Of a stretch of DNA of 64,000 nucleotides, positions 15,151 to 42,715 are shown piece after piece. The DNA comes from a candidate division WOR-3 bacterium. GTDB lineage: Bacteria; Hydrothermota; Hydrothermia; UBA1063; CAJXJZ01. The stretch spans positions 7,609-71,608 of the forward strand of contig JALSNX010000028.1 of NCBI GenBank assembly GCA_026986775.1, given 5' to 3'. The notes under the pieces were generated by a model. The model had not been told where the DNA came from and searched no databases. It worked only from the letters and a program-made list of their open reading frames with translations. The position numbers and the translations under genes were made by a program. The first letter of the stretch is position 1; every line of letters starts with the position of its first letter.

Positions 15151-15599
15151 ATTCCCTCCTTCTTCAACCTCTTTATCATTAAATCTATATGTGAACCTCT
15201 CCAGTAAATTTTATTGCATACTGGACAGAACTTAAACTCATTGAAGTTCTTATAAGTGAAATAGGGCACTTTACCCCTTACATTTTCATGGGGAATGTCC
15301 AAAAGAGGTGCATTACATTTTGAACATCTCGTAAGTATGCGGGGTTCTCTGATATTAAAATGCTTTATTACATCCTTTAGTTGTTCAAACAGAAAATCAC
15401 TTTCAAGCACATATACATTTTTATAAGGAAGGCGATTGAACTCTGTATTTCTCGTAAGAATAACCCTGTTTTCCGCATCAGCTATTTTTAAAAGTGCATC
15501 AGGTTCATGAAAATGCGTTGATTCTGTGTCCTGCCCGAGAAATCTCAACCATTTTGCAAGTTTGAGGACAGTAGCATCGCATAAAAACTTAAAACTCAT
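15132..15599 (-). CDS. Mut7-C RNase domain (DUF82) protein with C-terminal zinc ribbon
   Basis: 155 aa; N-terminus FLCDATVLKLAKWLRFLGQD typical of the family; CSKCN...CPVCN zinc ribbon. Confidence 0.7.
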   Translation of the reverse strand: MSFKFLCDATVLKLAKWLRFLGQDTESTHFHEPDALLKIADAENRVILTRNTEFNRLPYKNVYVLESDFLFEQLKDVIKHFNIREPRILTRCSKCNAPLLDIPHENVRGKVPYFTYKNFNEFKFCPVCNKIYWRGSHIDLMIKRLKKEGIWELLF

Positions 15600-16368
15600 G
15601 CTGAAGTTTTATGAGTATCTCCCTGAATAAAAATGCTGCCTTTGTGGCTGAATTTGTGGAGTGGTCCATAAGAGGTGAAAATTCCACTATGTCCGCTGCC
15701 ATAATGTTTTTAAGTAGCAGTATCTCATCCAAAATTTCCATTATTCCCTTTCCTCCCGGTTCTGGATTCGTAACGCCGGGAAATTCGGATGGATTGATTA
15801 CATCAAGGTCTAAAGTGAGATAAACTGGAGTTTTTATGTTCAAAAGCTCATTTCTGTAGTCTTCCCATGCGTAAAAGATATTTTTACTTTTTTCTTCGCA
15901 CGGTGCCTTTGTTCTAACTCCAACTGTAATTACATTCTCTTTGCCAATGAGTTTTTCCACGTGATACATGAAGGTTGCATGGTTATAAACCTCTTTTTCA
16001 AACTCAGGACGTCTGTCCATGTGTGCATCAAAATGCACCACCGTAAAATTAAGGTCAAGTTCTTCTTTCAAATATACGATTAGAGGGAAGGTAATAAAAT
16101 GGTCTCCCCCCAGTGCAACAAAAGGAGGAAATAGTTTTATGTCTTTTAACTTTTCTATAAGAAAATCCGCAAAATACTTTCCCTTTATATCAAGGGGCGG
16201 ATAAAAGTCTGAAAGGTCGTGGTATTCTTTAAGTTCTCTTTCCTGAATAACAGAGTAGTATTCTAAAGATGAAAGATGGTACCTTATAAAACCTGGTGCA
16301 AGTGCTGCACCTTTCTGGAAATTTTCACTGCCCTCATAGGGTATGCCAAATACACTAACCAATGGCAT
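15589..16368 (-). CDS. speB: agmatinase-family ureohydrolase (agmatine or N1-aminopropylagmatine ureohydrolase)
   Basis: 259 aa; Mn-binding ureohydrolase motifs GGDHFITFP, FDAHMD, LTLDLDVINP. Confidence 0.85.
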   Translation of the reverse strand: MPLVSVFGIPYEGSENFQKGAALAPGFIRYHLSSLEYYSVIQERELKEYHDLSDFYPPLDIKGKYFADFLIEKLKDIKLFPPFVALGGDHFITFPLIVYLKEELDLNFTVVHFDAHMDRRPEFEKEVYNHATFMYHVEKLIGKENVITVGVRTKAPCEEKSKNIFYAWEDYRNELLNIKTPVYLTLDLDVINPSEFPGVTNPEPGGKGIMEILDEILLLKNIMAADIVEFSPLMDHSTNSATKAAFLFREILIKLQHEF

Positions 16369-17173
16369 TTTTTATAAACTCCGGAAGGGCAAAGAGATGT
16401 TCCTGTATGCTTTTATTGTAGTATTTCAGTCCTTCAGGTATATAATCTCTTTTCACAACAAGTTCCGTATCCGTGGCAATGGTAAAACTCCAGAATCCCC
16501 CTGGATACGTGGGAACTGGAGCAAGATAAAGTTTTACCTCTTTAAAGAGTCTCTTAAGGTTCTTAATCTGCTCTTTTATAACACCAAGATGATACCATGG
16601 AGATTCAGATTGAAAAACTACAATGCCATCATCTTTTAAATTCTTTTTAATGCTTTTATAAAAATCAAGCGAGTAAAGGGCAACAGCCGGACCTACAGGA
16701 TCAGAAGAGTCAACAAAGAGAAGGTCAAACCTTTCATTTCTTTCATTTAAATATTTTACACCGTCCTCATAGTAAATACTGACTCTCTCATCTTTCAGAC
16801 GGGATGATGTAAACTCAAGGTATCTCTCGCTAACTTCAACCACCATCTTATCTATTTCTATGAGCAAAACAGATTCCACATCTGGATATTTAAGTATCTC
16901 TCTTACAGTGCCTCCATCCCCGCCCCCTATAACCCCAGCCTTTTTAACCTGTTCCTTAAAAGAAAAGGCAGGATGAACAAGCATTTCATGATAAACAAAT
17001 TCATCACGCTCTGTAAGCATCACAAGACCATCAAGAACCAGCATCCTGCCAAAAGTTTCTGTCTCAAAAACCTTTATTTCCTGATATGGAGACTTCGCAG
17101 AAAAGAGTTCCCTTTTTATTTTGAATATTATACCCGTTCCTTTATCGTGGAATTCTGTGAAGAACTGGTTCAT
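16355..17173 (-). CDS. speE: spermidine synthase-type aminopropyltransferase (canonical GGGDG type)
   Basis: 272 aa; VIGGGDGGTVREILK, LIEIDKMVV, VDSSDPVGPA. Confidence 0.9.
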   Translation of the reverse strand: MNQFFTEFHDKGTGIIFKIKRELFSAKSPYQEIKVFETETFGRMLVLDGLVMLTERDEFVYHEMLVHPAFSFKEQVKKAGVIGGGDGGTVREILKYPDVESVLLIEIDKMVVEVSERYLEFTSSRLKDERVSIYYEDGVKYLNERNERFDLLFVDSSDPVGPAVALYSLDFYKSIKKNLKDDGIVVFQSESPWYHLGVIKEQIKNLKRLFKEVKLYLAPVPTYPGGFWSFTIATDTELVVKRDYIPEGLKYYNKSIQEHLFALPEFIKNAIG

Positions 17174-17661
17174 TAAAAAAGCGCCACTCCTGCAAACACT
17201 GACACTATACCTTCTACTTTCCTTGATATGGTTTTCACCTTTATCTCTTTAACCTTTATACCCCTCATTTCCATGGCATCTTCAGCCATTTGAATAAGAA
17301 GTTTTTCCGCATCCTTTTCTGAGAGATACCCCGAATACTCCATTATCACACCATGCTCCATGGAATTTTCTGGAATGGCTACAGAAATGCCAGCGGTAAT
17401 GAGAGTGCCTTCCTCGGAGCTTTCAATACTTCCATAGGCAATTGGTAGCAGGCTACCTGCAGGAAGGGCTATGGAATTTTGCTCCCTTGCGCCTGGTGGT
17501 AAAATGCTGGATACTCTTATGAGATTGTATCTTGAAATACCAGCATCGTGTAATGCTGCATCAAAGGCATTAAGGTGGGTTCTGCCTCTGCCACTGCCTG
17601 ACACTATTATGAAATTTTCAGGCTTTCCAAACATAGGGCTTTTTGTCTGTAATGATAGCAC
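17173..17661 (-). CDS. pdaD: pyruvoyl-dependent arginine decarboxylase
   Basis: 162 aa; LNAFDAALHDAGISRYNLIRVSSILPP with the self-cleavage Ser-Ser site; alternative start ATG 17634 is possible. Confidence 0.9.
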   Translation of the reverse strand: MLSLQTKSPMFGKPENFIIVSGSGRGRTHLNAFDAALHDAGISRYNLIRVSSILPPGAREQNSIALPAGSLLPIAYGSIESSEEGTLITAGISVAIPENSMEHGVIMEYSGYLSEKDAEKLLIQMAEDAMEMRGIKVKEIKVKTISRKVEGIVSVFAGVALF

Positions 17662-18532
17662 CTTCTCTCATACTCTTTTTCATATATGGAGGAAGAACAG
17701 TCTTTGCAAAAAAGTATTCCGGGGTAAAGTAGTGTATCCTGTCCTTCAAAGCAGCAAATCGCTTTATCATGTCGTTTTTTCTCTCATTGAGCGCGTATTT
17801 CTTTGAAGCGATAAGAAATGCCCAGTTGAGCTGGAATGAAAATATATATTCATGATAACCGAATACAACAGGGAAAACCTCTTTCAATGTGGCACTAAGG
17901 GCTGATATAAACTCTGTGTACAGGTATTCTGCACTGCCTGCCTGCGCCACAAATACAGCATCAGGCGACATTCTGTCCTTCAGTATCTCATAAAAGTCCT
18001 TTGTGAAGAGGTATATGGCAGGTCCCTCCTCTACGGGCTCTGTAAGGTCGGATATAACCACATCAAAAGGCTCTCCACTGTATTCTTCCACAAATTTCCT
18101 TGCATCCTGAAATAAAACAATGCTTCTTTTGTCATCAAAACTACCATCATGCCACGAAGGCAGATACTCTTTGCACATTTTTACAAGTTCTTCATCAATG
18201 TCAACCATGTAAACTTTTTCAACTGGATGTTTTAAAACCTCCCTCAGGGTTGCGCCCTCTCCCCCGCCCATTATAAGGACATTTCGCGGTGCCGGATGAA
18301 GAAGCATTGCAGGATGAACAAGCATATCATGGTAAATATGCTCATCTATTTCTGCTGACTGCAATTTCCCATCAAGAAAAAGGGTTCTACCAAATGCAAA
18401 GAGATCAAGTATTTCAGCATACTGATACATTGTCTTTTTACCTGCCACATACCTCTTCACACGATACTGAAATCTTAAACCTTCAGTGTACGGCTCTTCA
18501 AACCACAAATTACTGTCCGGGTCCTTATCCAT
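17618..18532 (-). CDS. second aminopropyltransferase, GGGEG / DLTEP type (thermospermine-synthase / agmatine-triamine aminopropyltransferase-like)
   Basis: 304 aa; IMGGGEGATLREVLKH, MVDIDEELV, ISDLTEPVEEGPA. These motifs differ from the GGGDG/DSSDP paralog at 16355..17173. Confidence 0.8.
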   Translation of the reverse strand: MDKDPDSNLWFEEPYTEGLRFQYRVKRYVAGKKTMYQYAEILDLFAFGRTLFLDGKLQSAEIDEHIYHDMLVHPAMLLHPAPRNVLIMGGGEGATLREVLKHPVEKVYMVDIDEELVKMCKEYLPSWHDGSFDDKRSIVLFQDARKFVEEYSGEPFDVVISDLTEPVEEGPAIYLFTKDFYEILKDRMSPDAVFVAQAGSAEYLYTEFISALSATLKEVFPVVFGYHEYIFSFQLNWAFLIASKKYALNERKNDMIKRFAALKDRIHYFTPEYFFAKTVLPPYMKKSMREGAIITDKKPYVWKA

Positions 18533-18544
18533 ACACTTCCTACC

Positions 18545-18949
18545 TTACACGTATGCTTCTTCCTTAACTGAATCAGCATATTTGTACATGTCCTGCTCGC
18601 GGAAAACTCCACGCTTCATTTCCATTACAGTCATATGTCCCGGTCTGAAGTACTTTTCAAAGAGTTTTAAAGCCACATCTATATCAACATCATCAGAGCA
18701 GTAGAAATAATCTACAGCAGCATAACCATGTTCAGGCCATGTGTGTATTGAAAGATGGGATTCTTCTATTATAACCACACCTGAGACTCCATGTGGCTGG
18801 AACTGATGGAAGAATGAACCGAGGGCGTGGGCATTGGATTTTTTTGCTATATCAAGGAATGCTCTCTCAACCTGATCCTTATTTTTGAGGGTTTCAGGAT
18901 CACAATCATACATTTCTATTATTACATGCACCCCAAGGGCTTTTTTCAA
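18545..18949 (-). CDS. speH: S-adenosylmethionine decarboxylase proenzyme (small bacterial/archaeal class)
   Basis: 134 aa; self-processing site IIEE/SHLSIHTWPE; TTG start preceded by GGAGGTGGATAA. Confidence 0.9.
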   Translation of the reverse strand: MKKALGVHVIIEMYDCDPETLKNKDQVERAFLDIAKKSNAHALGSFFHQFQPHGVSGVVIIEESHLSIHTWPEHGYAAVDYFYCSDDVDIDVALKLFEKYFRPGHMTVMEMKRGVFREQDMYKYADSVKEEAYV

Positions 18950-22197: not shown

Positions 22198-23238
22198 TTA
22201 AAAATCCACATCCACTTCTCGTAAATACCTGGCAGCCTCTTCTGGAATGGTGGGGTTGATATGAAGTCCGGAACCCCACTCAAAGCCTGCTATTTTTGTG
22301 ATCCTTGGGACCAATTCTATATGCCAGTGGTAGTCATACTCTATTGTTGACCAGTAATGCGGTCTTCCAGGACGTTCATGGGTGGAAGGTGCTGTATGCA
22401 AAATCATGTTAAATGGCGGGTCATTGAGAACGACCTTTATTCTGTAAAGCATCTGCTTCAGCGCATAGGCTACATGGTAAAGCTCATCATCATTTAAAAG
22501 TGCAAAATCGTGTAAATGCTTTTTGGGAATAAGCCATGTTTCAAAGGGAAAGGAGGAGGCATATGGTTCCCAGATTACAAAGTGTTCGTTTTCCCATACT
22601 ATCCTTTCTCCCAACATTAGTTCCTGAGCCAGTATATCACACATGAGACACCTTTCTTTTCTCTTAAAGTGTTCCTGAGAGGCGGTAAGCTCTGTTGTTA
22701 CCACGGTTGGCACCATGGGAGTTGCTATTAACTGAGAATGGGGATGTTCAAGAGATGCACCTGCTTCTCTGCCATGATTTTTAAAAACAAGAATGTATCT
22801 GAATCTGATGTCCTTTCTCAAATCACGTATCCTTTCCCTGTATGCAACAAGAACATCTTTTATTTCTTCAACACTCCTGTCAGCCATGTGTGAATCATGC
22901 TTGGGTGTCTCTATTATTACCTCATGAGCACCTATACCACTTACCTTGTCAAAAAGTCCTACTCCCTCTCTTTTAAACTCACCTTCTATTCTCAGTGCAG
23001 GGAATTTATTTGGCACAACTCTTACCTTCCAGCCTGAGGTATTGGGTTCTCTATCATTTTTGTCTGTTATCACAAAGATTTCTGGTGGGGTTTTGTCTTC
23101 ATGACCATAGCAAAAAGGGCATAAAGCTCCCTTTTTCTTCTCTTCTTTAGGTATTTTGAAATCATGAGGCCTTCTACCTCTTTCCGTGGCTATAATAGTC
23201 CACCTTATCCTTAAAGGATCATATCTTATTTCTGGCAT
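22198..23238 (-). CDS. galT: galactose-1-phosphate uridylyltransferase-family (HIT-type) nucleotidyltransferase
   Basis: 346 aa; Zn site CPFCYGHE; active-site HPHSQL; physiological substrate not decidable from sequence. Confidence 0.8.
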   Translation of the reverse strand: MPEIRYDPLRIRWTIIATERGRRPHDFKIPKEEKKKGALCPFCYGHEDKTPPEIFVITDKNDREPNTSGWKVRVVPNKFPALRIEGEFKREGVGLFDKVSGIGAHEVIIETPKHDSHMADRSVEEIKDVLVAYRERIRDLRKDIRFRYILVFKNHGREAGASLEHPHSQLIATPMVPTVVTTELTASQEHFKRKERCLMCDILAQELMLGERIVWENEHFVIWEPYASSFPFETWLIPKKHLHDFALLNDDELYHVAYALKQMLYRIKVVLNDPPFNMILHTAPSTHERPGRPHYWSTIEYDYHWHIELVPRITKIAGFEWGSGLHINPTIPEEAARYLREVDVDF

Positions 23239-23239
23239 A

Positions 23240-25279
23240 CTATTCCTCCATTTTCAAACTCACGTTAAATATCTTGTGTTTAAGCGGATAGGTGAATATA
23301 ATACTGCTTCCCTGATACACCATATCCATTCCAGACTCTGACTGGGAAAGAGTGTAAACAGGGTAAACCCATATTCCACATTCCTCTGAACACACAAATT
23401 CTAATTTAATACCAAAATACTCATCTTCTATAACAAGCATATCACCTTTTCCTTCAAACATCTCCGCATTACCATGGTACTCTGCATCTTTTAGCCTGAA
23501 TACAGGTTTTACAAAATGGAGATTGAACTCAACCCCTGAAAGTAAAGTGAATGGTACCCTGCCTTTTGTATTAAGGGTAAAACTCACTGTATTTCCATCA
23601 AGTACAACTTTCTTGGCAACCTCAAATGGATAATTTCCGTTCTCTGTATATATTCCTCCATTTCTGTGAAGATAGATGGTTCTCTTTGCTCTGTCTGTTC
23701 TCAGGTTATACGGCATGTTAACAAAATCTCCCAGTTCTCTGAATTTCATATATCTCAGCATAGAAACGGTAGTATCAGGTGGTAATATATGGAAAAGCAG
23801 GGACCTTCGCTCATACCAGTCATAAACCATTTCCTTTTTGACACGAGAAGACACATACCGTTTAATCTCATGGATTGATTTTGCCTCATCCTGTTTTCCT
23901 TCTTCTTTTACTTCAACATCCTTGTGGTAGTGTTCAAATCTACGCGTAAGTGTGTCCTGAAAATTGATGCCCTTTTCCATGGAGGAAAGTTCATAAATAC
24001 TTCCATCTTTTGCTGTAATGCCTACAGAAAGCTTGCTATTTTTCATATAAACCTCATCATAGCCATCTGCATCCATGTCATCACGCACAAAAATGTCACG
24101 AGAGACCATCTTTTCCGCTGTAAGGAGATTTGAATACACTGCCCTGCGAAGATGTGGAAGGTAAAGCCCACCAAAGACACCATGCCAGTAAGCATCGTTG
24201 GCCTGTCCCCTCATAAGATGCAAAAGTGCCCTGCCCTTTTTGCTTCCCTCATATGAGTTGACCAGATTGGAAACAAAAATCATCTTTTTGTGCATTATGT
24301 TTGCTTCTGTATATTTTACCAGAAAATTCTTCCAGATTCCACCCTTTATAAACATCCTGTTGGCTTCAAACATCCTGTTTTTTCTCAGATAGTCCACAAA
24401 ATCAGTGAATTTAACGGCCACATCTGATGGTAACGACCATTCTCCCATCTCAAAATACGACGACGAGGGAAGATACACCCTGCCCAATGGTTTTCTTTTT
24501 TTCATATATCCTGAATACGTATCCGTCTCTACAAAGTCTGATGCCAGAACCAGCTCAATAAACTCCTTTAACCATCCTTTTTCATAAACCCACTCAAATG
24601 TGCCAGGCCATACGCCAAACTTTTCACCATCATCAAAAATGCATGCAGCATCAGAGGGGGCATTATCCCTTACCCATTTAAGATAATCCATAATTTCCTC
24701 TGGCTTTTTAAAGGGAATGAGATACCTGAGAGTCTGATTAATGGGAAATACTCCTATCTTTTTACCTTCAGACTCCGTATAGTAGTAGCCGAATAGATTC
24801 CTGTCTGATATACCTGCCTGAAGGAAATGGTAATCATCCACAACAACATAGGAAAGCCCTATATCAACAAGCGTCTTCAAAACATCACTTTCAAAAACCC
24901 TTTCCGTAAGCCAGAGTCCTGAAGGTCTTGTTCCAAATTTCTTTTTTATGTATGAAAGTGATTTTTTTATTTGATGACGTCTATCCATCTCCGGAATGGC
25001 AGCAAGAACTGGCTCATAAAACCCGCTTATTACAATCTCAATCTGATTTTTTGCCAGCATTTCTCCAATTATATCCATAAACTCTGGATGCTTGTCCTCA
25101 AAAAACTCCCACAGAGCTCCTGTAAAATGAACGGTGAATTTAAAATCAGGATATTTTCCGGCCACTTCCATGAACGGAAGGTAACTCTTCCTGTAGGCTT
25201 CTTCAAAAACAAAATCAAAATTGCCTACTGGCTGATGGGAATGAAGCCCAAGAAGAAGCGTGACCTTTTTATTCTTCAT
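23240..25279 (-). CDS. GH57 family glycoside hydrolase, 4-alpha-glucanotransferase/alpha-amylase-like
   Basis: 679 aa; GH57 regions LHSHQPVGNF, QIEIVISGFYEP, GLWLTERVFE (nucleophile Glu), IFDDGEKFGVWPG (acid/base Asp). Confidence 0.85.
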   Translation of the reverse strand: MKNKKVTLLLGLHSHQPVGNFDFVFEEAYRKSYLPFMEVAGKYPDFKFTVHFTGALWEFFEDKHPEFMDIIGEMLAKNQIEIVISGFYEPVLAAIPEMDRRHQIKKSLSYIKKKFGTRPSGLWLTERVFESDVLKTLVDIGLSYVVVDDYHFLQAGISDRNLFGYYYTESEGKKIGVFPINQTLRYLIPFKKPEEIMDYLKWVRDNAPSDAACIFDDGEKFGVWPGTFEWVYEKGWLKEFIELVLASDFVETDTYSGYMKKRKPLGRVYLPSSSYFEMGEWSLPSDVAVKFTDFVDYLRKNRMFEANRMFIKGGIWKNFLVKYTEANIMHKKMIFVSNLVNSYEGSKKGRALLHLMRGQANDAYWHGVFGGLYLPHLRRAVYSNLLTAEKMVSRDIFVRDDMDADGYDEVYMKNSKLSVGITAKDGSIYELSSMEKGINFQDTLTRRFEHYHKDVEVKEEGKQDEAKSIHEIKRYVSSRVKKEMVYDWYERRSLLFHILPPDTTVSMLRYMKFRELGDFVNMPYNLRTDRAKRTIYLHRNGGIYTENGNYPFEVAKKVVLDGNTVSFTLNTKGRVPFTLLSGVEFNLHFVKPVFRLKDAEYHGNAEMFEGKGDMLVIEDEYFGIKLEFVCSEECGIWVYPVYTLSQSESGMDMVYQGSSIIFTYPLKHKIFNVSLKMEE

Positions 25280-25291
25280 ATCTTACCTCCT

Positions 25292-27355
25292 TCAGACAAT
25301 CCAGTTTTCCTCAACATCCTCCCGGGATATTAGTCGCAAAATATAGAACCCGCTTGCGGGAAATCTCTCCTGAACAATCTCTTTTACAATAATTTTTATA
25401 GCAAGTGCTACAGTTGTATCATCAAGCATAACCTTGCCAAGTGGGACAGAGCACTCAAATACTTTACCCTTCACACAATCTCCGTATTTTCCTTCAACAA
25501 TTTCAAATATTTTGTGCCCCTCAATATCAAAAAACTCTATTCCAATAATACTTTCCATACTTTCAAGAGATTTTTCGCCTTCCACCCTCAGATAAAGATT
25601 ATTCTCATCTCTTCCAAAGAAGAGTCTTGTAAGCGAGGATTTACCCCTTTGCATTACTCCACCCTGTCCGCTTTCAAGGTCAATAACACCAGCACCCAGC
25701 CATTCAAAGAAGTTGGTTACTTTACCATCAAGAGTAGGAGAAATAAAATCACTCTCCTCCTCTATTACATATGTTCTCTTTCTTGTCACGCGTACTGGTA
25801 CATCAAGAAATCCCGGTACATTTCTGCCCAATTTTCTGTAAATCTCTTTTAGATGCTCTCTAAATAGTACATCAAATGTCTCAGCATAAAACGTGGGATT
25901 GTCATCTCCATACCACCAGAACCAGTCCGAACCTTCAGCATATATAAGCTCCATCTCTGCATGACTTTGCTCTTTTAAACTATCTTTGACTTCGTTCTTT
26001 ACGCGAACCAGGTATTCCCATGCTTTGTTTTTTTCAGGATGTCCTATCCATGTGGTGAAATCTGACCTTATCCATGACCCCGGGTGTAACCTCACAAGTT
26101 TTTTACTTTCATGGTTCAGTAAATCTTCTCCCGTCACAAACTCAACCATACCTGAAGCTTCAAGTGTTGAAAATAGTTTCTTCAAAAAGGGTACTCCACC
26201 GTCTTTATAGTTTTCCCAGGGGTTTTCTCCATCAAGAATAATACTTACAACCTCTCCGCCATGCAACACAATGTTTCTTATCCTGTCCATAAAATAAGAA
26301 ATTGCTTTTTCCTTACTCAATCTGTATAAATCAAAGCCTATGCTATCAGACAGTTCCCTATCTCTAAATAAAATCCTGACACCATTAAACTCATATATTT
26401 TGTAAATTTCTGAGGGAAAGTCTCCATTGCGGATTACGTATCCCAGAGATTTTTCCAGTATACCCTCATCAGTACCCACCCACTTTACATCATGCACCCG
26501 GGCAAGATTAATAAATTTTTCAGAAACACCACCCTCAGCAGGCCACATCCCTGAAGGTCTTTTTTTGAATACGGACTCTATGTAATCCATACCAAGTAAA
26601 AGTTGCCTCTCTGCATTTTTCGGGAACCTCCACCTTGTTTCAGGGAGACGAGTATATGGATTTGAAACTTCTGCACAGGATGAGTCTATAAGTAAAGGTG
26701 AGATCGGATGCGCATAGGGTGTAAATGTTATTTCTATCTTGCCTTCTTCCTGCAATTTTCTATAAAGAGGCACAATACGAGAAAGTAAAGTTTTATGCAC
26801 TTCTAAAACCACAGTCTTGTCTTCCTCGCTGTATCCGTAATCTTTTCTTTTTAACTCACCAAGCTCTGGAAACTCTTTTATTGCATAAACAGAGGTGTTA
26901 TAAAGATAAAACAGAATCTGAAGGTCCCTTATCTCACTCGTGGTAAACCTGCTAACCTTTTTTTCTATATCATAGGGACTACCCCTCTTGTCCAGAAGAT
27001 ACAAATAACGCTTTGAGTTTTTGAGCTTCGTGTTGTAATTTAAAGAAAAGAAGTTTTTCAGAATAAATACTCTCTCTTCAAAAGAAAGTGATTCAGCATC
27101 CTTTTTGAAATGTTGTAGAAACACATCCTCAAAATCGTTATTTATATAATCGTTGAGCTGTTCAATGAGGCTCGGAACAAAATTAATGGTGAGCTTTATG
27201 TTATCAATGTCTTCTATCACACGTGCCACATCGTAATATTCTCTTATTCCGTGCATATAAACCCATGGCATGAGATAAACATTCTTTCCGTCCTTTCTTA
27301 TACGATAAACGGGCTGGTGCATATGAAACAAAAACAGAATCTTTACTTTATCCAT
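25292..27355 (-). CDS. GH57 family glycoside hydrolase, amylopullulanase/alpha-amylase-like (not the branching-enzyme motif set)
   Basis: 687 aa; FHMHQPVYR, GMWPAEGGVSE, ILDGENPWE. Confidence 0.8.
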   Translation of the reverse strand: MDKVKILFLFHMHQPVYRIRKDGKNVYLMPWVYMHGIREYYDVARVIEDIDNIKLTINFVPSLIEQLNDYINNDFEDVFLQHFKKDAESLSFEERVFILKNFFSLNYNTKLKNSKRYLYLLDKRGSPYDIEKKVSRFTTSEIRDLQILFYLYNTSVYAIKEFPELGELKRKDYGYSEEDKTVVLEVHKTLLSRIVPLYRKLQEEGKIEITFTPYAHPISPLLIDSSCAEVSNPYTRLPETRWRFPKNAERQLLLGMDYIESVFKKRPSGMWPAEGGVSEKFINLARVHDVKWVGTDEGILEKSLGYVIRNGDFPSEIYKIYEFNGVRILFRDRELSDSIGFDLYRLSKEKAISYFMDRIRNIVLHGGEVVSIILDGENPWENYKDGGVPFLKKLFSTLEASGMVEFVTGEDLLNHESKKLVRLHPGSWIRSDFTTWIGHPEKNKAWEYLVRVKNEVKDSLKEQSHAEMELIYAEGSDWFWWYGDDNPTFYAETFDVLFREHLKEIYRKLGRNVPGFLDVPVRVTRKRTYVIEEESDFISPTLDGKVTNFFEWLGAGVIDLESGQGGVMQRGKSSLTRLFFGRDENNLYLRVEGEKSLESMESIIGIEFFDIEGHKIFEIVEGKYGDCVKGKVFECSVPLGKVMLDDTTVALAIKIIVKEIVQERFPASGFYILRLISREDVEENWIV

Positions 27356-29844
27356 TGCTTTATTCTTTTCACATACTCCCTGTGAAGTTTCTCAGCCTCA
27401 TCTCTGTTCAGTGCTTCCACGAACACATGAAAGTAAGGCTCAAATTCATCTGGATGAATCATCACCCACGAATCTTTATACACTATTTTGATACCATCAA
27501 GGAATGAGGCTTCCTCTCCATGAGCAAGTTCACTCATCTTTCTCATAACAGTTCCTTTTCTATCCCACGGACAGGCGACCTTTTCATGTATAAAATATGG
27601 CCTCTTTAAATCACTGTAAAAGCCATTGATATCCTTTCCAACTCCTGCAAGCATTTCCAGTATTTTACCGATTGCAAACATACCATCTTCTGCTATCTGA
27701 AACTCCGGAAAAATAAAGGCGCCATTCCCCGATGCTACAAGTTTCATATCCGGTGTCTTTGCCTCCTGCGCCATAACTCTTGGATTTGTTGCAATAGGTC
27801 TTACTTCAAAGCCCATTCTCTCGCCTTCTTCAAACACAATTTTAGGAGTATAGGGTGGCACTGCAATGACACCATGTTCGCCATAGGAAAGGGTAAGCAT
27901 GGAGACAAAAACCAGAAGGTCAATACCCTCTATAACATTGCCTCTGTTATCCACAACAATAATCTTCTCGCCATTGGGATAAAGATAAAATCCGACGTCA
28001 AATTTGAGAGATTTTACTATCTTCCCAAGTTCTATGAGCCTCTTTTTGATAACCTCTTCACTCTTAGAAATCTTCCTGTAATCACTGTAAGAATTGAGTG
28101 TAACTACATCCTCAACAAGCTCCTCTATCATGTACAAAAATCTTGGGGCGGTTGTTCCATTTGAGAGGTCAAGAACAATTCTAAACTTCCGTTGCCTTAT
28201 TAGCTCTGTGTTAAGAGCCTTTTTAAATCCCTCCTCATAAAAATCCCAGAGCCTTGTTTCAAAGCTAATACTTCCCACCTCATAATGATGGGCACGCCTG
28301 AAGTCTTCCCTGTAATAAATTCTTTCTATGGATTTGGCTTCAGAACCTGATATATCAACACCATTAGAGTCATAGAAATAGATTTCTGTGGATTCAGGCT
28401 CAGTGGGAGACTGTTTGAAGTAAACGCCTCCCATCTCACCAAAAGTTTGAAGTTTATATCTTAAAACAGGTATTGGAATGTTCTGTGCGTCCTTTACCTG
28501 CACTCCCGTGGACGCAAGTCCACCCATAAATGACCTTCTAAGCATTCTTGAGGCAGGATGTGCATCCCTTCCCAGTAAGATGGTTGCATTTCTCGGTAAC
28601 ACTGTTCCGTATGCAGAACCAAGTTTGGTGGTCATTTCAGGCGTAAGCTCAATATTTGTAAGCCCCTTTATAAATGAACCCTGAAACAGTGCCTTTTTCC
28701 ATTTCTCACCCCATACAAGGTTAAAAGATACAACTGAACCCTGCTCTATCTTCTTACTCGGCCATATTTTTATCCCCTCTTTAACAACAGACTCCCTTCC
28801 TATTCTGCACTCATCCCCTATAACCGCACCCTCCTGAATATGAACATTCTCCTCAACATAGACTCCATTCATTAAAACTGCTTTCTCAATTTTTGTGGCC
28901 TTTTTGAGATAAACATTATCCCAGAGTATTGCACCATCAAGAACAACATCGTCCTCTATTACACAATTATTGCCTATAACCGAGAGCCTTATCTTGGAGT
29001 TTTTGCCGATCCTGGTATTATTACCTATGATAATGGTACCCTGAAAGTTTACATTCTTTCCCAAAACCACATCCTCCCCGATACGAACATCCCTTCCTAC
29101 AAGGTCAAGCTTCTTTCCCGGCACTTCAACGTTAACCATACCATTTAAAATATCGTAATTTGCCAGTCTGTATGAATCAGGGTCTCCTATATCCCTCCAG
29201 TACCCTTCTGATATAAAACCAAACAACCTTTTCTTTTCATTCAGAAGTGCTGGGTAGAGATTCTTTGAAAAATCATATTCCTCATCCTGTGGTATCCTTT
29301 CAATCATCTCGTCGGTAAGAAGGTAAATACCGGTATTTATGGTATCAGAAAATACCTCTCCCCATGTGGGCTTTTCCAGAAACTTAATTATTCTACCCTC
29401 TTCATCTGTAATAACTATACCAAATTGAAGTGGATTATCCACTCTGGTAAGACCGATGGTAACATCAGCAGATTTTTTGTTGTGAAAATCAAGCATTTCT
29501 GAAAGTTCAAAGTCAGTGAGAAGGTCACCACTTATGATAAGATAAAGGTCATCAGGAAATCTATCCCTTGCAAACCTTACAGCACCAGCGGTTCCAAGGT
29601 CTTTATTTGGTATAACATAGTTTATCCTCACTCCGAAATCACTTCCATCGCCGAAAAAGTTCTTGATATATTCTGGGTGATAATAAAGGAGCATAACGAT
29701 ATCAGTTATACCATGTCTTCTAAGAAGTTTCACTATATGCTCCAGGACAGGACGATTTACAAGAGGAAGCATGGGTTTTGGAATATTTACGGTAAGGGGC
29801 CTTATTCTGGTCCCGAACCCACCTGCCATTACAAAGGCTTTCAT
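27343..29844 (-). CDS. sugar-1-phosphate nucleotidylyltransferase (with left-handed beta-helix) fused to a phosphohexomutase-like domain
   Basis: 833 aa; N-terminus MKAFVMAGGFGTRIRPLTVNIPKPMLP; hexapeptide repeats around residues 240-360; C-terminal half aligns by eye to PGM/PMM, but canonical active-site loops are not evident (see finding). Confidence 0.8.
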   Translation of the reverse strand: MKAFVMAGGFGTRIRPLTVNIPKPMLPLVNRPVLEHIVKLLRRHGITDIVMLLYYHPEYIKNFFGDGSDFGVRINYVIPNKDLGTAGAVRFARDRFPDDLYLIISGDLLTDFELSEMLDFHNKKSADVTIGLTRVDNPLQFGIVITDEEGRIIKFLEKPTWGEVFSDTINTGIYLLTDEMIERIPQDEEYDFSKNLYPALLNEKKRLFGFISEGYWRDIGDPDSYRLANYDILNGMVNVEVPGKKLDLVGRDVRIGEDVVLGKNVNFQGTIIIGNNTRIGKNSKIRLSVIGNNCVIEDDVVLDGAILWDNVYLKKATKIEKAVLMNGVYVEENVHIQEGAVIGDECRIGRESVVKEGIKIWPSKKIEQGSVVSFNLVWGEKWKKALFQGSFIKGLTNIELTPEMTTKLGSAYGTVLPRNATILLGRDAHPASRMLRRSFMGGLASTGVQVKDAQNIPIPVLRYKLQTFGEMGGVYFKQSPTEPESTEIYFYDSNGVDISGSEAKSIERIYYREDFRRAHHYEVGSISFETRLWDFYEEGFKKALNTELIRQRKFRIVLDLSNGTTAPRFLYMIEELVEDVVTLNSYSDYRKISKSEEVIKKRLIELGKIVKSLKFDVGFYLYPNGEKIIVVDNRGNVIEGIDLLVFVSMLTLSYGEHGVIAVPPYTPKIVFEEGERMGFEVRPIATNPRVMAQEAKTPDMKLVASGNGAFIFPEFQIAEDGMFAIGKILEMLAGVGKDINGFYSDLKRPYFIHEKVACPWDRKGTVMRKMSELAHGEEASFLDGIKIVYKDSWVMIHPDEFEPYFHVFVEALNRDEAEKLHREYVKRIKQWIK

Positions 29845-31863: not shown

Positions 31864-31892
31864 ATAATAATCCTACCCCTTTGACCAGTCAA
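31864..31892 (-). promoter_or_regulatory. candidate promoter for the HD-GYP/GGDEF gene (TTGACT-N17-TATTAT), -10 only 9 nt from the ATG
   Basis: Minus strand TTGACTggtcaaaggggtaggatTATTATgatgtaactATG; no SD between the -10 and the start. Confidence 0.4.
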
Positions 31893-31909
31893 GAATTTAC
31901 TTTTAGAAT
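31881..31909 (+). promoter_or_regulatory. candidate promoter for the DAK2-DegV gene (TTGACC-N17-TAGAAT), -10 ends 6 nt before the ATG (leaderless candidate)
   Basis: Plus strand TTGACCagtcaagaatttactttTAGAATatacttATG; no SD. Its -35 overlaps the -35 of the divergent promoter within the palindrome TTGAC-CA-GTCAA. Confidence 0.5.
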
Positions 31910-31915
31910 ATACTT

Positions 31916-33706
31916 ATGACTGAGAAGAAAAAAATACTAAAAGGACCGGACTTTGCAAAGGGTATACTTACTGCAATTGCAAACCTTTTGAAAAGAAGGG
32001 AATTTTTGAACTCAATCAATGTGTTCCCGGTACCTGATGGAGATACCGGTTCTAACCTTTCACATACCCTGAAGGGAGCAGCACCCATACTCATAGAAGC
32101 AGGTGAACAGCTCAAACTGTGTGAAGTTGTCAAAAGATTTTCAGAATCTCTTGTTTTGGAGGCAAAAGGTAACTCCGGAGTTATTCTATCTCAATTTTTC
32201 ATAGAGTTTCAGGAGGCTATAAAAGGAAAAGAATCACTGACTGGAAAGGAGTTTGCAAAAGCCCTGAAACAGGCTGTTGATAATACCTACAGGGCAATAG
32301 AAAATCCTGTAGAGGGAACCATTTTGAGCGTTATGCGGGATTCTGCCAATGCGGCTTTAAAATCCGCTAAAAGACACGATACATTTGTTGATGTTCTTGA
32401 AGACGTATATCACGAGACTTTGAAATCACTTGAAAAGACAAAAAAGGCCATGCTCAGGCTGAAAGGTAAAGAGGTAATTGACGCAGGTGCCTTTGGCTAT
32501 TTTCTATTAATTGAAGGGCTTTACAGATATTTTAAAGACGGACATTATGAAATACCGGATATAGACTTTGAAGACGAGCAAAAGAAAAGCGATTATATAG
32601 AGCAGGAAGAAATTAAAGAGAGATACTGCACCGAAGCTGTTATTGAAGGCGAAAACCTTTCTCAGAAAAAATTAAAAATACTTCTGGCCGCCCTTGGAAG
32701 TTCTCTTATTGTAATGGGAGCAGGGAAACTGTTTCACATTCACGTTCATACCAACTGGCCGGATAAAGTGTTTGATGTTCTGAAAAAAGAAGGACGAATA
32801 ATAAAGAAGAAAATAGACGACATGATTCAGATGAATCAGGAGGCTCAGAAAAAGGAACTGGGAATAGTTGTGGACTCTGCCTCTGACATGCCCATAGACA
32901 CAGCTCAGGAAAAGGACATTTACATAGTGCCACTTACCGTATTTATTGATGGAACGCCATACAGGGAAGGCGTTGACATAACGAGGGAAGAGATTACAAA
33001 AATAATTCTTGAAGGAAAACACGAAATTAAAACCTCACAACCCTCACCCAATGATTTCAAACAGGCTATTGATAGGGCATTTGAGAAATACAGAAACGTT
33101 TTGATAATCACACTTTCGTCCAGTCTTTCAGGTACATTTGGAGCTGCCCAGCTTGCCCAGAAATCTTATAAAGATAAGAGTGAAAGCATATTCGTATTTG
33201 ACTCAAGAATGGCATCCTTAGGTGAGACTCTTCTGGCAATAAGAGCAAGAGAAAAAGCAGAGGAAGGATACTCTCCACGAGAAATAGTTTCATACCTCAA
33301 TAAACTGGTTTCCTACTCAAAGTATCTCCTCGTGGTGGGCGATCTGAAATCCCTTATAAAGCGTGGAAAAATAGGTAAAATAAGCGGCGCCATTGGAACC
33401 TACCTCAAAATAAAACCTATATTAACCTTTGATGAGCAGGGAGCATTATACGCCCAGGAGAAAATCATGGGTCTGGACAGGGCAATTAGAAAAATGGGAG
33501 AAATGCTTGAGGAATCTTTAAGGAAAACCTGGACATATGACTTTGGATTTACTCACTTTGCTTTTGAAGAGGGAATGAAAAAACTTGAAGAATTCGTCAT
33601 AAGCAGATTCTCAGCACATACTGTTTTCAGAACATGGGCTTCACCGGTAATAGGAGCCTATACAGGTCCTGATTCTGTGGGAGTTGTTGCCATACCAAGG
33701 ATATAA
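31916..33706 (+). CDS. DAK2-domain (FakA/YloV-like kinase N-domain + middle domain) fused to a complete DegV (FakB-like fatty-acid-binding) domain
   Basis: 596 aa; NVFPVPDGDTGSNL (DAK2); middle ERYCTEAVIEG...HIHVHTNWP; from about residue 314 a DegV domain: GIVVDSASDMP, TSQPSP, ITLSSSLSGTFGAAQ, LKIKPILTF. Confidence 0.85.
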   Translation: MTEKKKILKGPDFAKGILTAIANLLKRREFLNSINVFPVPDGDTGSNLSHTLKGAAPILIEAGEQLKLCEVVKRFSESLVLEAKGNSGVILSQFFIEFQEAIKGKESLTGKEFAKALKQAVDNTYRAIENPVEGTILSVMRDSANAALKSAKRHDTFVDVLEDVYHETLKSLEKTKKAMLRLKGKEVIDAGAFGYFLLIEGLYRYFKDGHYEIPDIDFEDEQKKSDYIEQEEIKERYCTEAVIEGENLSQKKLKILLAALGSSLIVMGAGKLFHIHVHTNWPDKVFDVLKKEGRIIKKKIDDMIQMNQEAQKKELGIVVDSASDMPIDTAQEKDIYIVPLTVFIDGTPYREGVDITREEITKIILEGKHEIKTSQPSPNDFKQAIDRAFEKYRNVLIITLSSSLSGTFGAAQLAQKSYKDKSESIFVFDSRMASLGETLLAIRAREKAEEGYSPREIVSYLNKLVSYSKYLLVVGDLKSLIKRGKIGKISGAIGTYLKIKPILTFDEQGALYAQEKIMGLDRAIRKMGEMLEESLRKTWTYDFGFTHFAFEEGMKKLEEFVISRFSAHTVFRTWASPVIGAYTGPDSVGVVAIPRI

Positions 33707-33717
33707 AAGAAAGAGTA

Positions 33718-34899
33718 TCAGAAATGTCTATTTTTTACTCCAGCACGTGCTCTGAAAAGCTCAATCATCTCTTTTAAACTTCTTAATGACGCATCGGGGT
33801 CTTTTAGAGCAAGTTTTGTATGATTTAGAACCCTTAAAACCCAGAGTTTAAAAAGAAGCTTTCTCCATTCTTCAATGGTAGGGTCAAAATGTTTCATAAA
33901 TATCTCATAGGACTCATACCATAGTGTCGGATTCATAAAATCGTAATCTCCATCAGAAATTGCTTTTGATACCCTTTCTCTTATATGGGAGGGGAAGTAC
34001 TCTAAAAGCAATGACTTCATCTTCTCGGTCCACCCCTCTTTAAACTCTCTTATAGTACCATCTATATCAAAGGCTATACGGGTCTTGTATTCCTGTGGAA
34101 CCTCCACTGTATTGTCTTTATGGTAAACCATTCTATCCGTATCTATCCTGAGGTTTTTATTTTCCCGTATAAAATCAAAGCACTCCACAGTCATGGTTTC
34201 AAGGTCACTGAGTTTGCCATAGAGTTTATGGTGCTTTCCCTCTTTAATATAAACCTCATACAGTTTAACCCCATATCTTGCAAAAGATATAGTCAAAGCT
34301 GTATCTATGGACCAGTCACTCGCCTCTAAAACAATTTTATCTTTTGCCAGTCGTTCTGCAACTTCTCGTGTAAACCCCAGTTCTCCTCCAAGTGGCTGCT
34401 CTATATCGGGAAGAATTGTATGTGGCCACACATACGCAAAGCCGGTTCTCGTAATATTCCATGTAACCATTGCATCTGTATAGGCTCTCGGGAAAAAGCA
34501 TCTTGATACATGGTATCCTTCATCAAGCCTAAGCTGTACCCTATCAATCCATGTTCTGGAAAAGGACTTTATATCAGCATCGTAAAAGTGCAGAAATTTC
34601 TCTTTTCCTCTCTCAACAAAATATTGAATTGCAGTATTCATCCCATCACCCTTACCCGCTCGTCTTTTTGTTCCAAGTCTCTTCTGTATTATAAGTGATA
34701 TTCTGCTTTTTTCCTCTGCTTTAAGCGTGCTTATAAAATCAGATATACCTCTGTAAGTCTCATTTTCATTATAACCTACCAGAATTACATGCCCCACTCT
34801 TTCATGAGAAAGAGCCTCTTTTATATTATTTTTGAAATCTTCCACGTTTTCTTTTTTGAAGGGAAAACAAACGGCAATGTCTTTTTGCCCCTTTTCCAT
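33718..34899 (-). CDS. GT-A fold glycosyltransferase, glucosyl-/mannosyl-3-phosphoglycerate synthase-like
   Basis: 393 aa; AGKGDGMNTA (compare GKGE(A/G) in GpgS/MpgS), HFYDADIKSF (DxD), QPLGGELGFTRE (compare PLSGEYA in GpgS). The specific sugar and acceptor are not decidable. Confidence 0.5.
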   Translation of the reverse strand: MEKGQKDIAVCFPFKKENVEDFKNNIKEALSHERVGHVILVGYNENETYRGISDFISTLKAEEKSRISLIIQKRLGTKRRAGKGDGMNTAIQYFVERGKEKFLHFYDADIKSFSRTWIDRVQLRLDEGYHVSRCFFPRAYTDAMVTWNITRTGFAYVWPHTILPDIEQPLGGELGFTREVAERLAKDKIVLEASDWSIDTALTISFARYGVKLYEVYIKEGKHHKLYGKLSDLETMTVECFDFIRENKNLRIDTDRMVYHKDNTVEVPQEYKTRIAFDIDGTIREFKEGWTEKMKSLLLEYFPSHIRERVSKAISDGDYDFMNPTLWYESYEIFMKHFDPTIEEWRKLLFKLWVLRVLNHTKLALKDPDASLRSLKEMIELFRARAGVKNRHF

Positions 34900-40371: not shown

Positions 40372-41637
40372 TCAATGTTTTCTTTTACGTTTAAGCTCGA
40401 GATTGATTATTTTTGCTGCTCTTTTGAGAGCTTTATCTACAGGCAACACACCTCTAAGGGCATATTCAAGTCCTTCTGTTGAAAGATACCGTCTTCCTGT
40501 AAACCATGCAGGATTATTTGGCTCAAAATCACAGTAGGCCACCTGTTTCATGGCTTCCTCCATTCCGGGCACTTCTTCAAAGAATTTTTTCATCTCAGGT
40601 TGCTCAAAAGCACTCTTTGTCAGGGGAAGGTATCCTGTATGAACTGACCAGTAAGCTTGATTTTCCGGCCTCAAAAAATACTTTATGAACTCTATGGCAT
40701 TTCTTCTCTGCCAGTCCGGAACATCTCTATAAAGCGTTACATTTGTGCCTGATACAATAACTGTACTGTCTTTGGTTACTGCATCCATGGGAATCCTTGC
40801 AACACCAAGGTCAAAGTCTATCTTATCTTTCATAAAGCTGTAAGACACTATTGTACCCCATACCATGGCCACCTTTCCAGCAGCAAAATCATCCTGATGC
40901 TTATATCCTGTCGTTATGTAGGCACAGCTGTCCTTATACACAAGGTCATAGAGAAACTGCAAAGCCTCTACACCGGCTTTTGAATCAAAAACAGCTGAAT
41001 CATTAACTATGAGCCGACCACCCTTCTGGTAAAGCAACGTTGCAAACATCCAGACATCTATTACAAAAGCAGTACCATAGATGTCAGGTTTTCCATCTCC
41101 ATCTTTATCAATAGTAAGTTTCTTTGCTACTTCTCTGAATTCCTGCCATGTTCTTGGAAAAGAATCTATTCCGTATTCCCTGAAAAGGTCTTTGTTATAG
41201 TAATAAACAGGCACGCTTTTATTAAAAGGGAATGTAACAAGTTTACCATTCCATGTATTGTCCTTTATTAAAGGTGGAAATATATCTTCCAGCAAACTAT
41301 CTGGTATCATGTCCTTATACTCTTCCACTGGCACTATTTTCCCGGCATCCATTAATTCAGATGTCCACGACTCATATACCTGTGAAAATGTGGGGGGTCT
41401 TGAAGAGGCCACAGCCCCCATAATTTTTTGGGATAAAGTTGAATAATTACCAAGGTTAACCTGAACTATTTTCAAAGAATCCGGCACCTGTGCGTTATAG
41501 TTATTAACTATATTCAAAAGCGCCTCCCCGAGGGGACCTCCCATAGCATGCCAGAATACAGTCCTATTTGTATTTTTTGAAACGCAGCCAGCAAACAGCA
41601 GAATAACAAGAAGGATACTACTTCTTGCTTTTTTCAT
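40372..41637 (-). CDS. ABC transporter extracellular solute-binding lipoprotein (family 1, carbohydrate-type); no cognate permease or ATPase adjacent
   Basis: Lipobox LLFAGC. I prefer ATG 41637 (SD GAGGAG upstream) over the track start 41664. Typical SBP_bac_1-like length and pattern. Confidence 0.8.
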   Translation of the reverse strand: MKKARSSILLVILLFAGCVSKNTNRTVFWHAMGGPLGEALLNIVNNYNAQVPDSLKIVQVNLGNYSTLSQKIMGAVASSRPPTFSQVYESWTSELMDAGKIVPVEEYKDMIPDSLLEDIFPPLIKDNTWNGKLVTFPFNKSVPVYYYNKDLFREYGIDSFPRTWQEFREVAKKLTIDKDGDGKPDIYGTAFVIDVWMFATLLYQKGGRLIVNDSAVFDSKAGVEALQFLYDLVYKDSCAYITTGYKHQDDFAAGKVAMVWGTIVSYSFMKDKIDFDLGVARIPMDAVTKDSTVIVSGTNVTLYRDVPDWQRRNAIEFIKYFLRPENQAYWSVHTGYLPLTKSAFEQPEMKKFFEEVPGMEEAMKQVAYCDFEPNNPAWFTGRRYLSTEGLEYALRGVLPVDKALKRAAKIINLELKRKRKH

Positions 41638-42715
41638 TCCTTTTCTCCTCTTTTTTAGGTCCAAGAGGCATTGAATAAGTTAAGGCATATCTTAGATTAG
41701 CACCATTATTATTGAAACTATATATTTTACTGTCATCTGAAACATCAAGTCTGAAATTGCCAATATGGAACCCTACGCCATAGGTTATTCCTTTCCTTGC
41801 ACCTTCTTCGTCCCAAAAATACCCAAATCTAAAACTCAAAAGGTTATAAAAGGTGTATTCCAGTCCACCATGTTTCCATGCCTCGTTTAACACATATCCA
41901 AAACCCTTGTCTTCATAATCCTTAGAGATACCGACCAGTATTTTGTTTATATCCATAGATACTGTAAAACTGTGATAGGGCATACTCATTTTCAAAGCCA
42001 AACCATTTCTCATAAGATAAGGCAATGGGTCTTTTTCATCTGCTGACGATGAATACTTTATTCCCGGGCCGAAATTATCCAGTTGCAGGCCATAGGTGAC
42101 TTTCATTTTAAACCAGCTGGTTTTTGAATGAATCCACTCTTTCTCAAGAACTGTATAAAGCAGAGAGCCTCCAATTGCAAAAGATGCTCCCTTTCCACCA
42201 CCCTCTATGCCAGTGGCTTTTCGCAGAATTTCTGCCGGAGCAAGGAAGGAATAGATAAACTTGATATTAGTTCCCACACTGAGGCGTTTATTTACATCGT
42301 ACGCGTATGCGAGATTTGCAGCCACATCATAGGGGCGCCATTCTCCGTAGTACTCTCCATCAGGCCCATGCCCCTCAAACAATCCATAAGTGGCATATGT
42401 GATAGAAAGTCCTAAAGCTCCCACAGGAAGTGGTCTGGTCAAACCAATAAATTCATAATACATGTCAGGTGCAAGCCCCCTGAGCCATGGGGAATGCATT
42501 AACGTGATTTCAAAGTCTTTTTTAAATGCAATGGCAGAAGGATTATAGTATAGTGCGGTTGCATCATCCGCCACAGCGCAAAAAGCACCACCTAAAGAAG
42601 TGGCTTTGGCTCCGGGATATATTAACAAAAACACTGCACCTGCCTCAAAAGCAGACGCCTGAAGCAGTGTAACAAGGAATAATACTCCCATTATTTTTTT
42701 CACAAATCTATTCAT
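41618..42715 (-). CDS. outer-membrane beta-barrel, PorV / FadL / UPF0164-like
   Basis: 365 aa; signal peptide; N-terminal motif AVFLLIYPGAKATSLGGAFCAVADDATALYYNPSAIAF resembles (from memory) the PorV-family signature; alternating beta-strand pattern throughout. Confidence 0.5.
   Translation of the reverse strand: MNRFVKKIMGVLFLVTLLQASAFEAGAVFLLIYPGAKATSLGGAFCAVADDATALYYNPSAIAFKKDFEITLMHSPWLRGLAPDMYYEFIGLTRPLPVGALGLSITYATYGLFEGHGPDGEYYGEWRPYDVAANLAYAYDVNKRLSVGTNIKFIYSFLAPAEILRKATGIEGGGKGASFAIGGSLLYTVLEKEWIHSKTSWFKMKVTYGLQLDNFGPGIKYSSSADEKDPLPYLMRNGLALKMSMPYHSFTVSMDINKILVGISKDYEDKGFGYVLNEAWKHGGLEYTFYNLLSFRFGYFWDEEGARKGITYGVGFHIGNFRLDVSDDSKIYSFNNNGANLRYALTYSMPLGPKKEEKRNEKSKK

Follow-up and report, generated by a model that had tools for sequence, protein, structure and literature searches.

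In the literature we searched, fatty acid kinase is described as a Gram-positive system of two proteins, with the kinase FakA and the lipid carrier FakB as separate chains. In FakA of Staphylococcus aureus (SaFakA), N32, D38, D40, T41, N82 and D185 are reported to hold ADP and two Mg2+, and the middle domain carries a Cys240/His282/His284 cluster (PMC9136124). This middle domain is the dimerisation domain, and the nucleotide domain of one canonical FakA chain works with the C-terminal domain of the other (PMC10848957). FakA_C, as the C-terminal domain is called, has a FakB-like fold without the three inserts that roof the lipid tunnel, and is touched by an arginine of the carrier (R205 of FakB1, R202 of FakB2) (PMC9136124). 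Here we describe a gene on a 64,000-nucleotide stretch of DNA (the whole stretch being called the window; contig JALSNX010000028.1) from a candidate division WOR-3 bacterium, whose 596-residue product joins a Dak2 domain, a FakA-like middle domain (FakA_M) and a complete DegV domain of the FakB type in one chain. The product is probably a self-contained, one-polypeptide fatty acid kinase.

The original prediction quoted a handful of motifs for this protein, all of which are present in the translation (NVFPVPDGDTGSNL, RYCTEAVIEG, HVHTNWP, VVDSASDMP, TSQPSP, LSSSLSGT and KIKPIL). Its domain reading, in which a complete DegV domain comes after Dak2 and a YloV-type middle domain, was borne out by Pfam and NCBIfam models and by matches to solved structures (Table 1). 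The DegV model PF02645 gives 236.8 bits (cutoff 27) and is covered over profile positions 2-279 of 280, while TIGR00762 (DegV) reaches 245 bits (cutoff 99.7). FakA-like_C (PF13684), on the other hand, gave no match to the window protein in the Pfam scan even at E ≤ 0.1, and TIGR03599 (YloV) stays at 280 bits, under its cutoff of 396, and extends over profile positions 2-370 of 530 only. The usual YloV C-terminal domain is thus absent, as had been claimed, and the C-terminal part scores as DegV and not as an ordinary FakA C-domain.

Models for the separate Fak proteins also fall under their cutoffs: NF038248 (FakA_VfrB) at 199 bits (cutoff 975) and NF038249 (FakB1 equivalog) at 120.6 bits (cutoff 350), the DegV domain being here covalently fused and not a stand-alone protein of ~280 residues. 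The same is true of two dihydroxyacetone kinase models (TIGR02365, 37 bits vs 138; TIGR02361, 22 vs 575), and the profile scan found no Dak1 domain in the window protein. By sequence, the match to Streptococcus suis FakA (7W7H chain A) runs over residues 17-398 and that to S. aureus FakA_N over residues 8-208, and S. aureus FakB2 (4X9X) is matched, along with ~25 other DegV/FakB entries, by residues 317-593; the FakA_N-like fold occupies about residues 8-208.

Conservation was assessed in an alignment of 77 proteins of the same architecture, all of which carry Dak2, FakA-like_M and DegV. N35, D41, D43, T44, N86 and D189 are the counterparts of SaFakA N32, D38, D40, T41, N82 and D185, and C238, H276 and H278 those of SaFakA C240, H282 and H284, or of the zinc-finger ligands of S. 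suis. All nine of these nucleotide/Mg and Cys-His-His residues are invariant. For the DegV half, the carboxylate site of S. aureus FakB2 reportedly consists of T61, S93, R170 and H266 (Broussard et al. 2016); the residue identities at these positions agree with the alignment to 4X9X. In that alignment T373 and S405 pair with T61 and S93. D320, S405 and T407 are invariant across the family, and position 373 is Thr in 66 proteins and Ser in 11. The position of the FakB arginine that contacts FakA_C is variable (F in 34, R in 30, L in 7, M in 5), as would be expected if docking were no longer needed.

An AlphaFold2 model of the monomer, built on the same alignment, has a mean predicted local distance difference test score (pLDDT) of 88, with domains that are individually confident, and a predicted template modelling score (pTM) of 0.59, at which cis and trans geometry are not distinguished. 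The pLDDT falls below 50 at residues 219-229, and DSSP assigns no secondary structure to residues 209-236. This linker between Dak2 and the middle domain varies in length and sequence across the family, and the link from the middle domain to DegV is only ~2 residues long in the model. In Foldseek comparisons the N-terminal half superposes on S. aureus FakA_N (8vit, 8viq and 8vip) with a TM-score (TM) of 0.90 and a root-mean-square deviation (rmsd) of 2.0 Å, and the DegV half on the fatty-acid-loaded structures 2dt8, 4x9x, 6mh9, 1vpv and others with TM 0.85-0.91 and rmsd 2.4-2.7 Å over ~285 columns. The C-terminal half is accordingly modelled as a two-subdomain DegV fold with a lipid tunnel.

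It had been implied that this architecture is rare, and this part of the original prediction did not hold: the family is large, spans many phyla and is already annotated in databases, so that the fused chain is to a large extent a common annotated form. A homolog search covering 5.8 billion proteins listed 120 homologs, all with the same three Pfam domains and ~580-625 residues long, except for one 401-residue entry annotated as partial. We also scanned one genome per GTDB species and took the best 80 loci, among which full-length copies occur in more than 75 species-representative genomes from more than 10 phyla. The lineages are WOR-3, Gemmatimonadota, Marinimicrobia/Fidelibacterota, Krumholzibacteriota, Eisenbacteria, Acidobacteriota, Bacteroidota, Chlorobiota, Calditrichota, Spirochaetota, Desulfobacterota-type bacteria, Nitrospinota, Gammaproteobacteria (including a Legionella isolate), Izemoplasmatales, Clostridia and Fusobacteriota. 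When the kinase half (residues 1-312) was used as a query against 1.84 billion representatives at 50% identity, 1,276 matches were obtained at E ≤ 1e-30. Among the best 150 of them, 133 are non-fragment sequences, and local hidden Markov model classification with a Pfam spot check assigned a complete DegV half to 89 of these, a partial one to 4 and none to 40; FakA-like_C was present in all ten that were sampled from the 40 (PF13684, E 1e-72 to 1e-87).

Source names for the family in NCBI, UniProt and JGI include 'DegV family EDD domain-containing protein', 'DAK2 domain-containing protein', 'DegV family protein with EDD domain' and 'DAK2 domain fusion protein YloV'. The window protein shares with this database family (for example the UniProt member UniRef100_A0A7V3KMM8, 'DegV family protein', of candidate division WOR-3, or MCK6600995.1, 'DegV family EDD domain-containing protein', of Bacteroidota) its domain order, its length and 30-86% identity, and also the invariant residues and membership of one clade in the tree of kinase halves described below. 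Its closest named relatives are from WOR-3 and Hydrothermae, at 43-51% identity. A 2021 preprint (bioRxiv 10.1101/2021.02.16.431466) already mentions Dak2-DegV fusions and refers for them to Erni et al. 2006. Other mentions of a 'fusion' in papers on Fak were set aside, as they refer to laboratory constructs or to FakA's own domains and not to a natural FakA-FakB chain. The window gene is one ordinary member of an abundant, already annotated family, and its locus is not special. What is of value lies at the level of the family, namely its deep separation from FakA, its plsY operons and a clade with a Lys/Tyr variant, which are taken up in turn.

An unrooted neighbour-joining tree of the shared Dak2 and middle-domain region (127 sequences, 304 columns) contains one branch that parts 88 fused proteins, the window protein included, from 38 canonical FakA proteins and a single fused one (P0242). 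Fitch parsimony requires two changes of architecture on this tree, 1-5 in 30 bootstrap resamples and 28-36 with shuffled labels. As the kinase halves separate fused from canonical proteins almost perfectly, the fused form is an old sister family and not the product of a recent fusion. The named canonical sequences among the close kinase-half matches belong to Bacillota and Actinomycetota. When the fused DegV half was compared by hhalign with FakA_C halves taken from 37 canonical proteins, the probability was 91.5% (E 8.5e-7, 172 columns) and TSQPS aligned with GQTMNPS; FakA_C is without the SGT serine motif, and PF13684 is also matched by 32 of the 77 fused proteins. These comparisons indicate that FakA_C is homologous to the DegV half, in a degenerate form and in the same slot of the chain, and that the fused protein and FakA are homologs over their whole length, the difference being the retention or loss of the lipid pocket in the third domain. 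The crystallographic view of FakA_C as a FakB-like fold without the tunnel inserts (PMC9136124) is in agreement with this.

The description of the gene as a Rosetta-stone fusion consequently stands in part. There is a single chain with both parts, but a history in which FakA lost its C-terminal domain and gained FakB does not fit the deep split in the tree, nor a FakA_C that is itself a DegV homolog. A further scenario, which we put forward tentatively, is that the fused form was the original self-sufficient kinase and the main path by which free fatty acid becomes acyl-phosphate for PlsY in many diderm groups (FCB bacteria including WOR-3 and Marinimicrobia, Gemmatimonadota, Acidobacteriota and some Proteobacteria), for which the Fak pathway is at present left out of account. 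The FakA/FakB pair of Firmicutes would then have been derived by duplication of DegV, with the tethered copy decaying to the pocket-less, FakB-docking FakA_C.

PlsY, the acyl-phosphate:glycerol-3-phosphate acyltransferase, consumes the product of Fak. All open reading frames (ORFs; approximate calls) of the 80 genomic loci were clustered, and the commonest neighbour of the fused gene was a ~215-residue membrane protein identified as PlsY (PF02660, E 4e-52). Its gene lies directly downstream on the same strand in 14 of the 80 loci (L008, L028, L035, L037, L038, L047, L052, L054, L062, L063, L072, L076, L079 and L082), with a spacing that ranges from a 71-bp overlap to a 142-bp gap. The two genes apparently form an operon in at least four phyla, the lineages concerned being Marinimicrobia/Fidelibacterota, Calditrichota (Caldithrix), Bacteroidota (Cytophagia), Spirochaetota (Sediminispirochaeta) and several unclassified metagenome-assembled genomes (MAGs). 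Given what PlsY consumes, this linkage ties the fused family to acyl-phosphate synthesis and lends support to a self-contained kinase. A separate DegV or Dak2 gene within ±6 kb was found in none of the 80 loci.

In the mechanism that we infer, a free fatty acid would sit in the lipid tunnel of the DegV domain, its carboxylate presented at Thr373/Ser405, and the N-terminal Dak2 domain would bind ATP and two Mg2+. By analogy with FakA, the middle domain with its Cys-His-His metal cluster would dimerise the protein. Dak2, on a flexible linker of ~28 residues, could then swing onto the DegV domain, itself placed almost directly after the middle domain, of either its own chain or the partner chain (compare the domain-swapped FakA dimer), and the gamma-phosphate would pass to the carboxylate to give an acyl-phosphate, the substrate of PlsY for phospholipid synthesis. 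With the lipid carrier tethered, a FakB-docking domain such as FakA_C would not be needed. Such a tethered version would be a simple single-gene generator of acyl-phosphate, useful for lipid synthesis in vitro, and would offer a natural test of the reason for the pocket-less DegV-like domain in FakA. Provided that it is active, it would bring acyl-phosphate-based fatty acid recycling to many uncultivated diderm lineages.

Several observations weigh against a self-contained fatty acid kinase. In the alignment to 4X9X, the window protein has K485 at FakB2 R170 and Y582 at H266, and alanine mutants of that arginine are inactive in S. suis (SsFakB1 R172A and SsFakB3 R174A; PMC10848957). The whole-chain rmsd of the model to FakA of 7W7H is 21.8 Å, the domains being the same and their arrangement not fixed by a model of this pTM. 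No plsX, plsY or fab gene was found in the annotated ~3.6-62 kb of the window; the surrounding genes are unrelated to lipids and encode a signalling protein with GGDEF, HD and GAF domains, a response regulator, a mannosylglycerate-synthase-like glycosyltransferase, BamA and ClpB. The literature searched yielded no paper in which a Dak2–FakA_M–DegV protein was purified or assayed. The Lys/Tyr pair is the sole peculiarity of the window copy and, among the 77 proteins, is restricted to it and its six closest relatives. Across the alignment position 485 is Arg in 70 and Lys in 7, and position 582 is His in 53, Tyr in 14, Asn in 5 and Ser in 5; most members of the database family thus differ from the window protein in having Arg/His, and some have plsY directly downstream, where the window has none. 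Lys and Tyr are plausibly conservative replacements that may do the same charge and hydrogen-bond jobs.

These same residues bear on what else the protein might do. The K485/Y582 pair of the window clade could mean relaxed constraint on the fused pocket, as in a protein with an ordinary FakA-like role whose DegV-type third domain mainly docks a separate FakB/DegV protein while its own pocket is minor or regulatory. Such a role would suit the homology of the DegV half to FakA_C in the same position (the hhalign and PF13684 matches above) and the docking of FakB by FakA_C through a DegV-like fold (PMC9136124). We nevertheless consider it unlikely: the DegV half is full length and keeps the lipid-tunnel inserts that FakA_C lost, D320, S405 and T407 are invariant with Thr or Ser only at 373, the Glu/Arg docking pair is not kept on the DegV side, and no free DegV gene accompanies any of the 80 loci within the distance searched. 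That two FakB carboxylate-site residues out of four are replaced (R by K, H by Y) could also be taken to mean that, at least in the window clade, a ligand other than a long-chain fatty acid is phosphorylated or merely sensed, in a pathway unrelated to PlsY. This would sit well with a window that has no lipid-gene context and a divergent GGDEF/HD-GYP/GAF signalling gene, and DegV proteins of unknown role do exist, such as one of S. pyogenes that reportedly affects membrane lipid content (PMC10138225). It is nonetheless quite improbable, since all solved DegV structures that match the model are fatty-acid binders, Lys and Tyr should be able to fill the same roles as Arg and His, and the plsY linkage elsewhere in the family points to acyl-phosphate. 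The gene context of a relative with 36% identity differs from that of the window, and with context varying from clade to clade the GGDEF gene is probably a chance neighbour. Finally, the chance that the fused chain is an artefact, two adjacent genes joined by an error of sequencing or assembly, is vanishingly small. A product with 100% identity over all 596 residues is encoded on a separate 72-kb ENA contig (k141_609559). A 98% relative, flanked by the same genes, occurs on a contig of the NCBI MAG GCA_054027995.1 and on a Logan contig, and we conclude that the chain is real and owes nothing to misassembly or a frameshift. The uninterrupted product recurs on independent assemblies from ENA, NCBI, JGI and Logan, the identical architecture and length are seen in more than 100 protein clusters, and the AlphaFold2 model runs without a break from helix to strand across the junction at residues 303-320.

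A self-contained fatty acid kinase of this kind would resemble FakA/FakB of S. aureus and S. suis (7W7H, 7RM7, 6W6B and 4X9X) in its Dak2/DhaL ATP-2Mg ligand residues, its middle-domain Cys-His-His residues, its DegV carrier fold with the Thr/Ser carboxylate site and its expected chemistry, in which ATP and a fatty acid give an acyl-phosphate for PlsY (or PlsX). It differs in having one chain instead of two proteins, with a pocket-bearing DegV domain in the FakA_C (PF13684) slot, in its very short link from the middle domain to DegV, and in Lys485 and Tyr582 for the FakB Arg and His. The hosts differ as well, being Firmicutes there and here an uncultivated bacterium of diderm type (BamA, PorV and type IX secretion cargo). 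The dihydroxyacetone kinases (Escherichia coli DhaK/DhaL and Citrobacter freundii DhaK) also have a DhaL-type nucleotide domain that phosphorylates a substrate held on an EDD-fold domain, and C. freundii DhaK is a single-chain, domain-swapped dimer (PMC10848957). In that protein, however, the order is K-L, as against L-M-DegV here, the window protein is without Dak1, and the triose is bound as a hemiaminal whereas the lipid here is expected to be bound non-covalently.

Other arrangements of these domains were encountered among the proteins surveyed. One of 829 residues (P0301), from a two-member cluster, has Dak2, FakA_M, FakA_C and a complete DegV domain, a literal end-to-end fusion of FakA and FakB; like the window protein it has the functions of FakA and FakB in a single chain, but it keeps FakA_C and adds the complete DegV domain after it. 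A truncated protein of 731 residues (P0220) is of the same four-domain type. A canonical FakA of 780 residues (P0125) has ~250 additional residues at its N-terminus, with a second match to Dak2, possibly a tandem Dak2 domain.

Table 1. Fused kinase gene, the domains of its product and the upstream promoter match, in window coordinates
Feature	Position	Strand	Basis
596-residue Dak2–FakA_M–DegV gene	31916..33706 (stop codon included)	+	ORF listing; ATG start, uninterrupted
Dak2 / DhaL-type ATP-Mg binding domain, residues 38-203	32027..32524	+	PF02734, E 3.8e-34
Flexible acidic Dak2-to-middle-domain linker, residues 209-235	32540..32620	+	AlphaFold2 pLDDT, DSSP, family variability
FakA-like middle domain, residues 236-306, with C238/H276/H278 cluster	32621..32833	+	PF21645, E 8.4e-17
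Full-length DegV (FakB-type) domain, residues 315-594	32858..33697	+	PF02645, E 3.9e-70
Sigma-70-like promoter match, TTGACC-17-TAGAAT	31881..31909	+	Consensus scan, 10/12 matches; pattern match only

The fused gene was also said to be the only one on the plus strand of the window, and this is correct. Of 51 ORFs of at least 150 residues, only this gene and three short ORFs that lie within longer minus-strand genes are not on the minus strand. About 47 consecutive real genes thus run along the minus strand across 64 kb with the fused gene as their sole interruption, a layout that is the same in the 98% relative. GC skew is positive in the 32-34 kb bin and negative in every other 2-kb bin of the window. 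The gene itself is native in GC content, GC content at third codon positions (GC3) and codon usage, which lie inside the range of its neighbours, and on this ground horizontal acquisition was rejected as the cause of its lone orientation. A tblastn search found no second copy of the fused gene within the window. A protein with 36% identity (P0031) had been considered as a paralog in the same genome, and was rejected on account of its different MAG and different gene context.

The gene forms a divergent pair with the GGDEF/HD-GYP/GAF signalling gene, and downstream of it a convergent glycosyltransferase gene takes the place of plsY. The promoter match sits in the 61-bp intergenic region of the divergent pair and ends 7 nt upstream of the ATG; direct reading of the sequence revealed no Shine-Dalgarno sequence. 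In the wider family, a DUF502 (PF04367) membrane protein is encoded near the fused kinase gene in 8 of the 80 loci, in several lineages (for example L047, 4270-4860), with one such protein at L004, 18270-18965.

Elsewhere in the window, all on the minus strand, positions 15589-18949 hold a polyamine cluster with an agmatinase/arginase family gene, two spermidine/spermine synthase genes, a pyruvoyl-dependent arginine decarboxylase and an AdoMet decarboxylase, which suggests long-chain or branched polyamines as in thermophiles. Sugar and compatible-solute genes at 22198-29844 and 33718-34899 encode two GH57 enzymes, GalT, a bifunctional NTP-transferase/phosphomannomutase-type protein and the mannosylglycerate-synthase-like glycosyltransferase (MGS_GT/MGS_C), whose gene is directly convergent with the kinase gene. 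The stretch at 7208-10859 has a GC content of 0.31-0.32, against ~0.40 elsewhere, and the most deviant codon usage of the window; it encodes a 675-residue protein and two others without Pfam matches, lies beside genes for an ABC ATPase and for a prepilin-type N_methyl protein, and is possibly an acquired island. Type IX secretion is represented at 41618-42715 and 49467-52385 by PorV and a 972-residue C25 peptidase with CARDB and Por_Secre_tail domains, consistent with a WOR-3-like host of the FCB superphylum. In view of the closest named relatives, these secretion components and the polyamine and compatible-solute genes, the host is probably a WOR-3-related, uncultivated and likely thermophilic bacterium.

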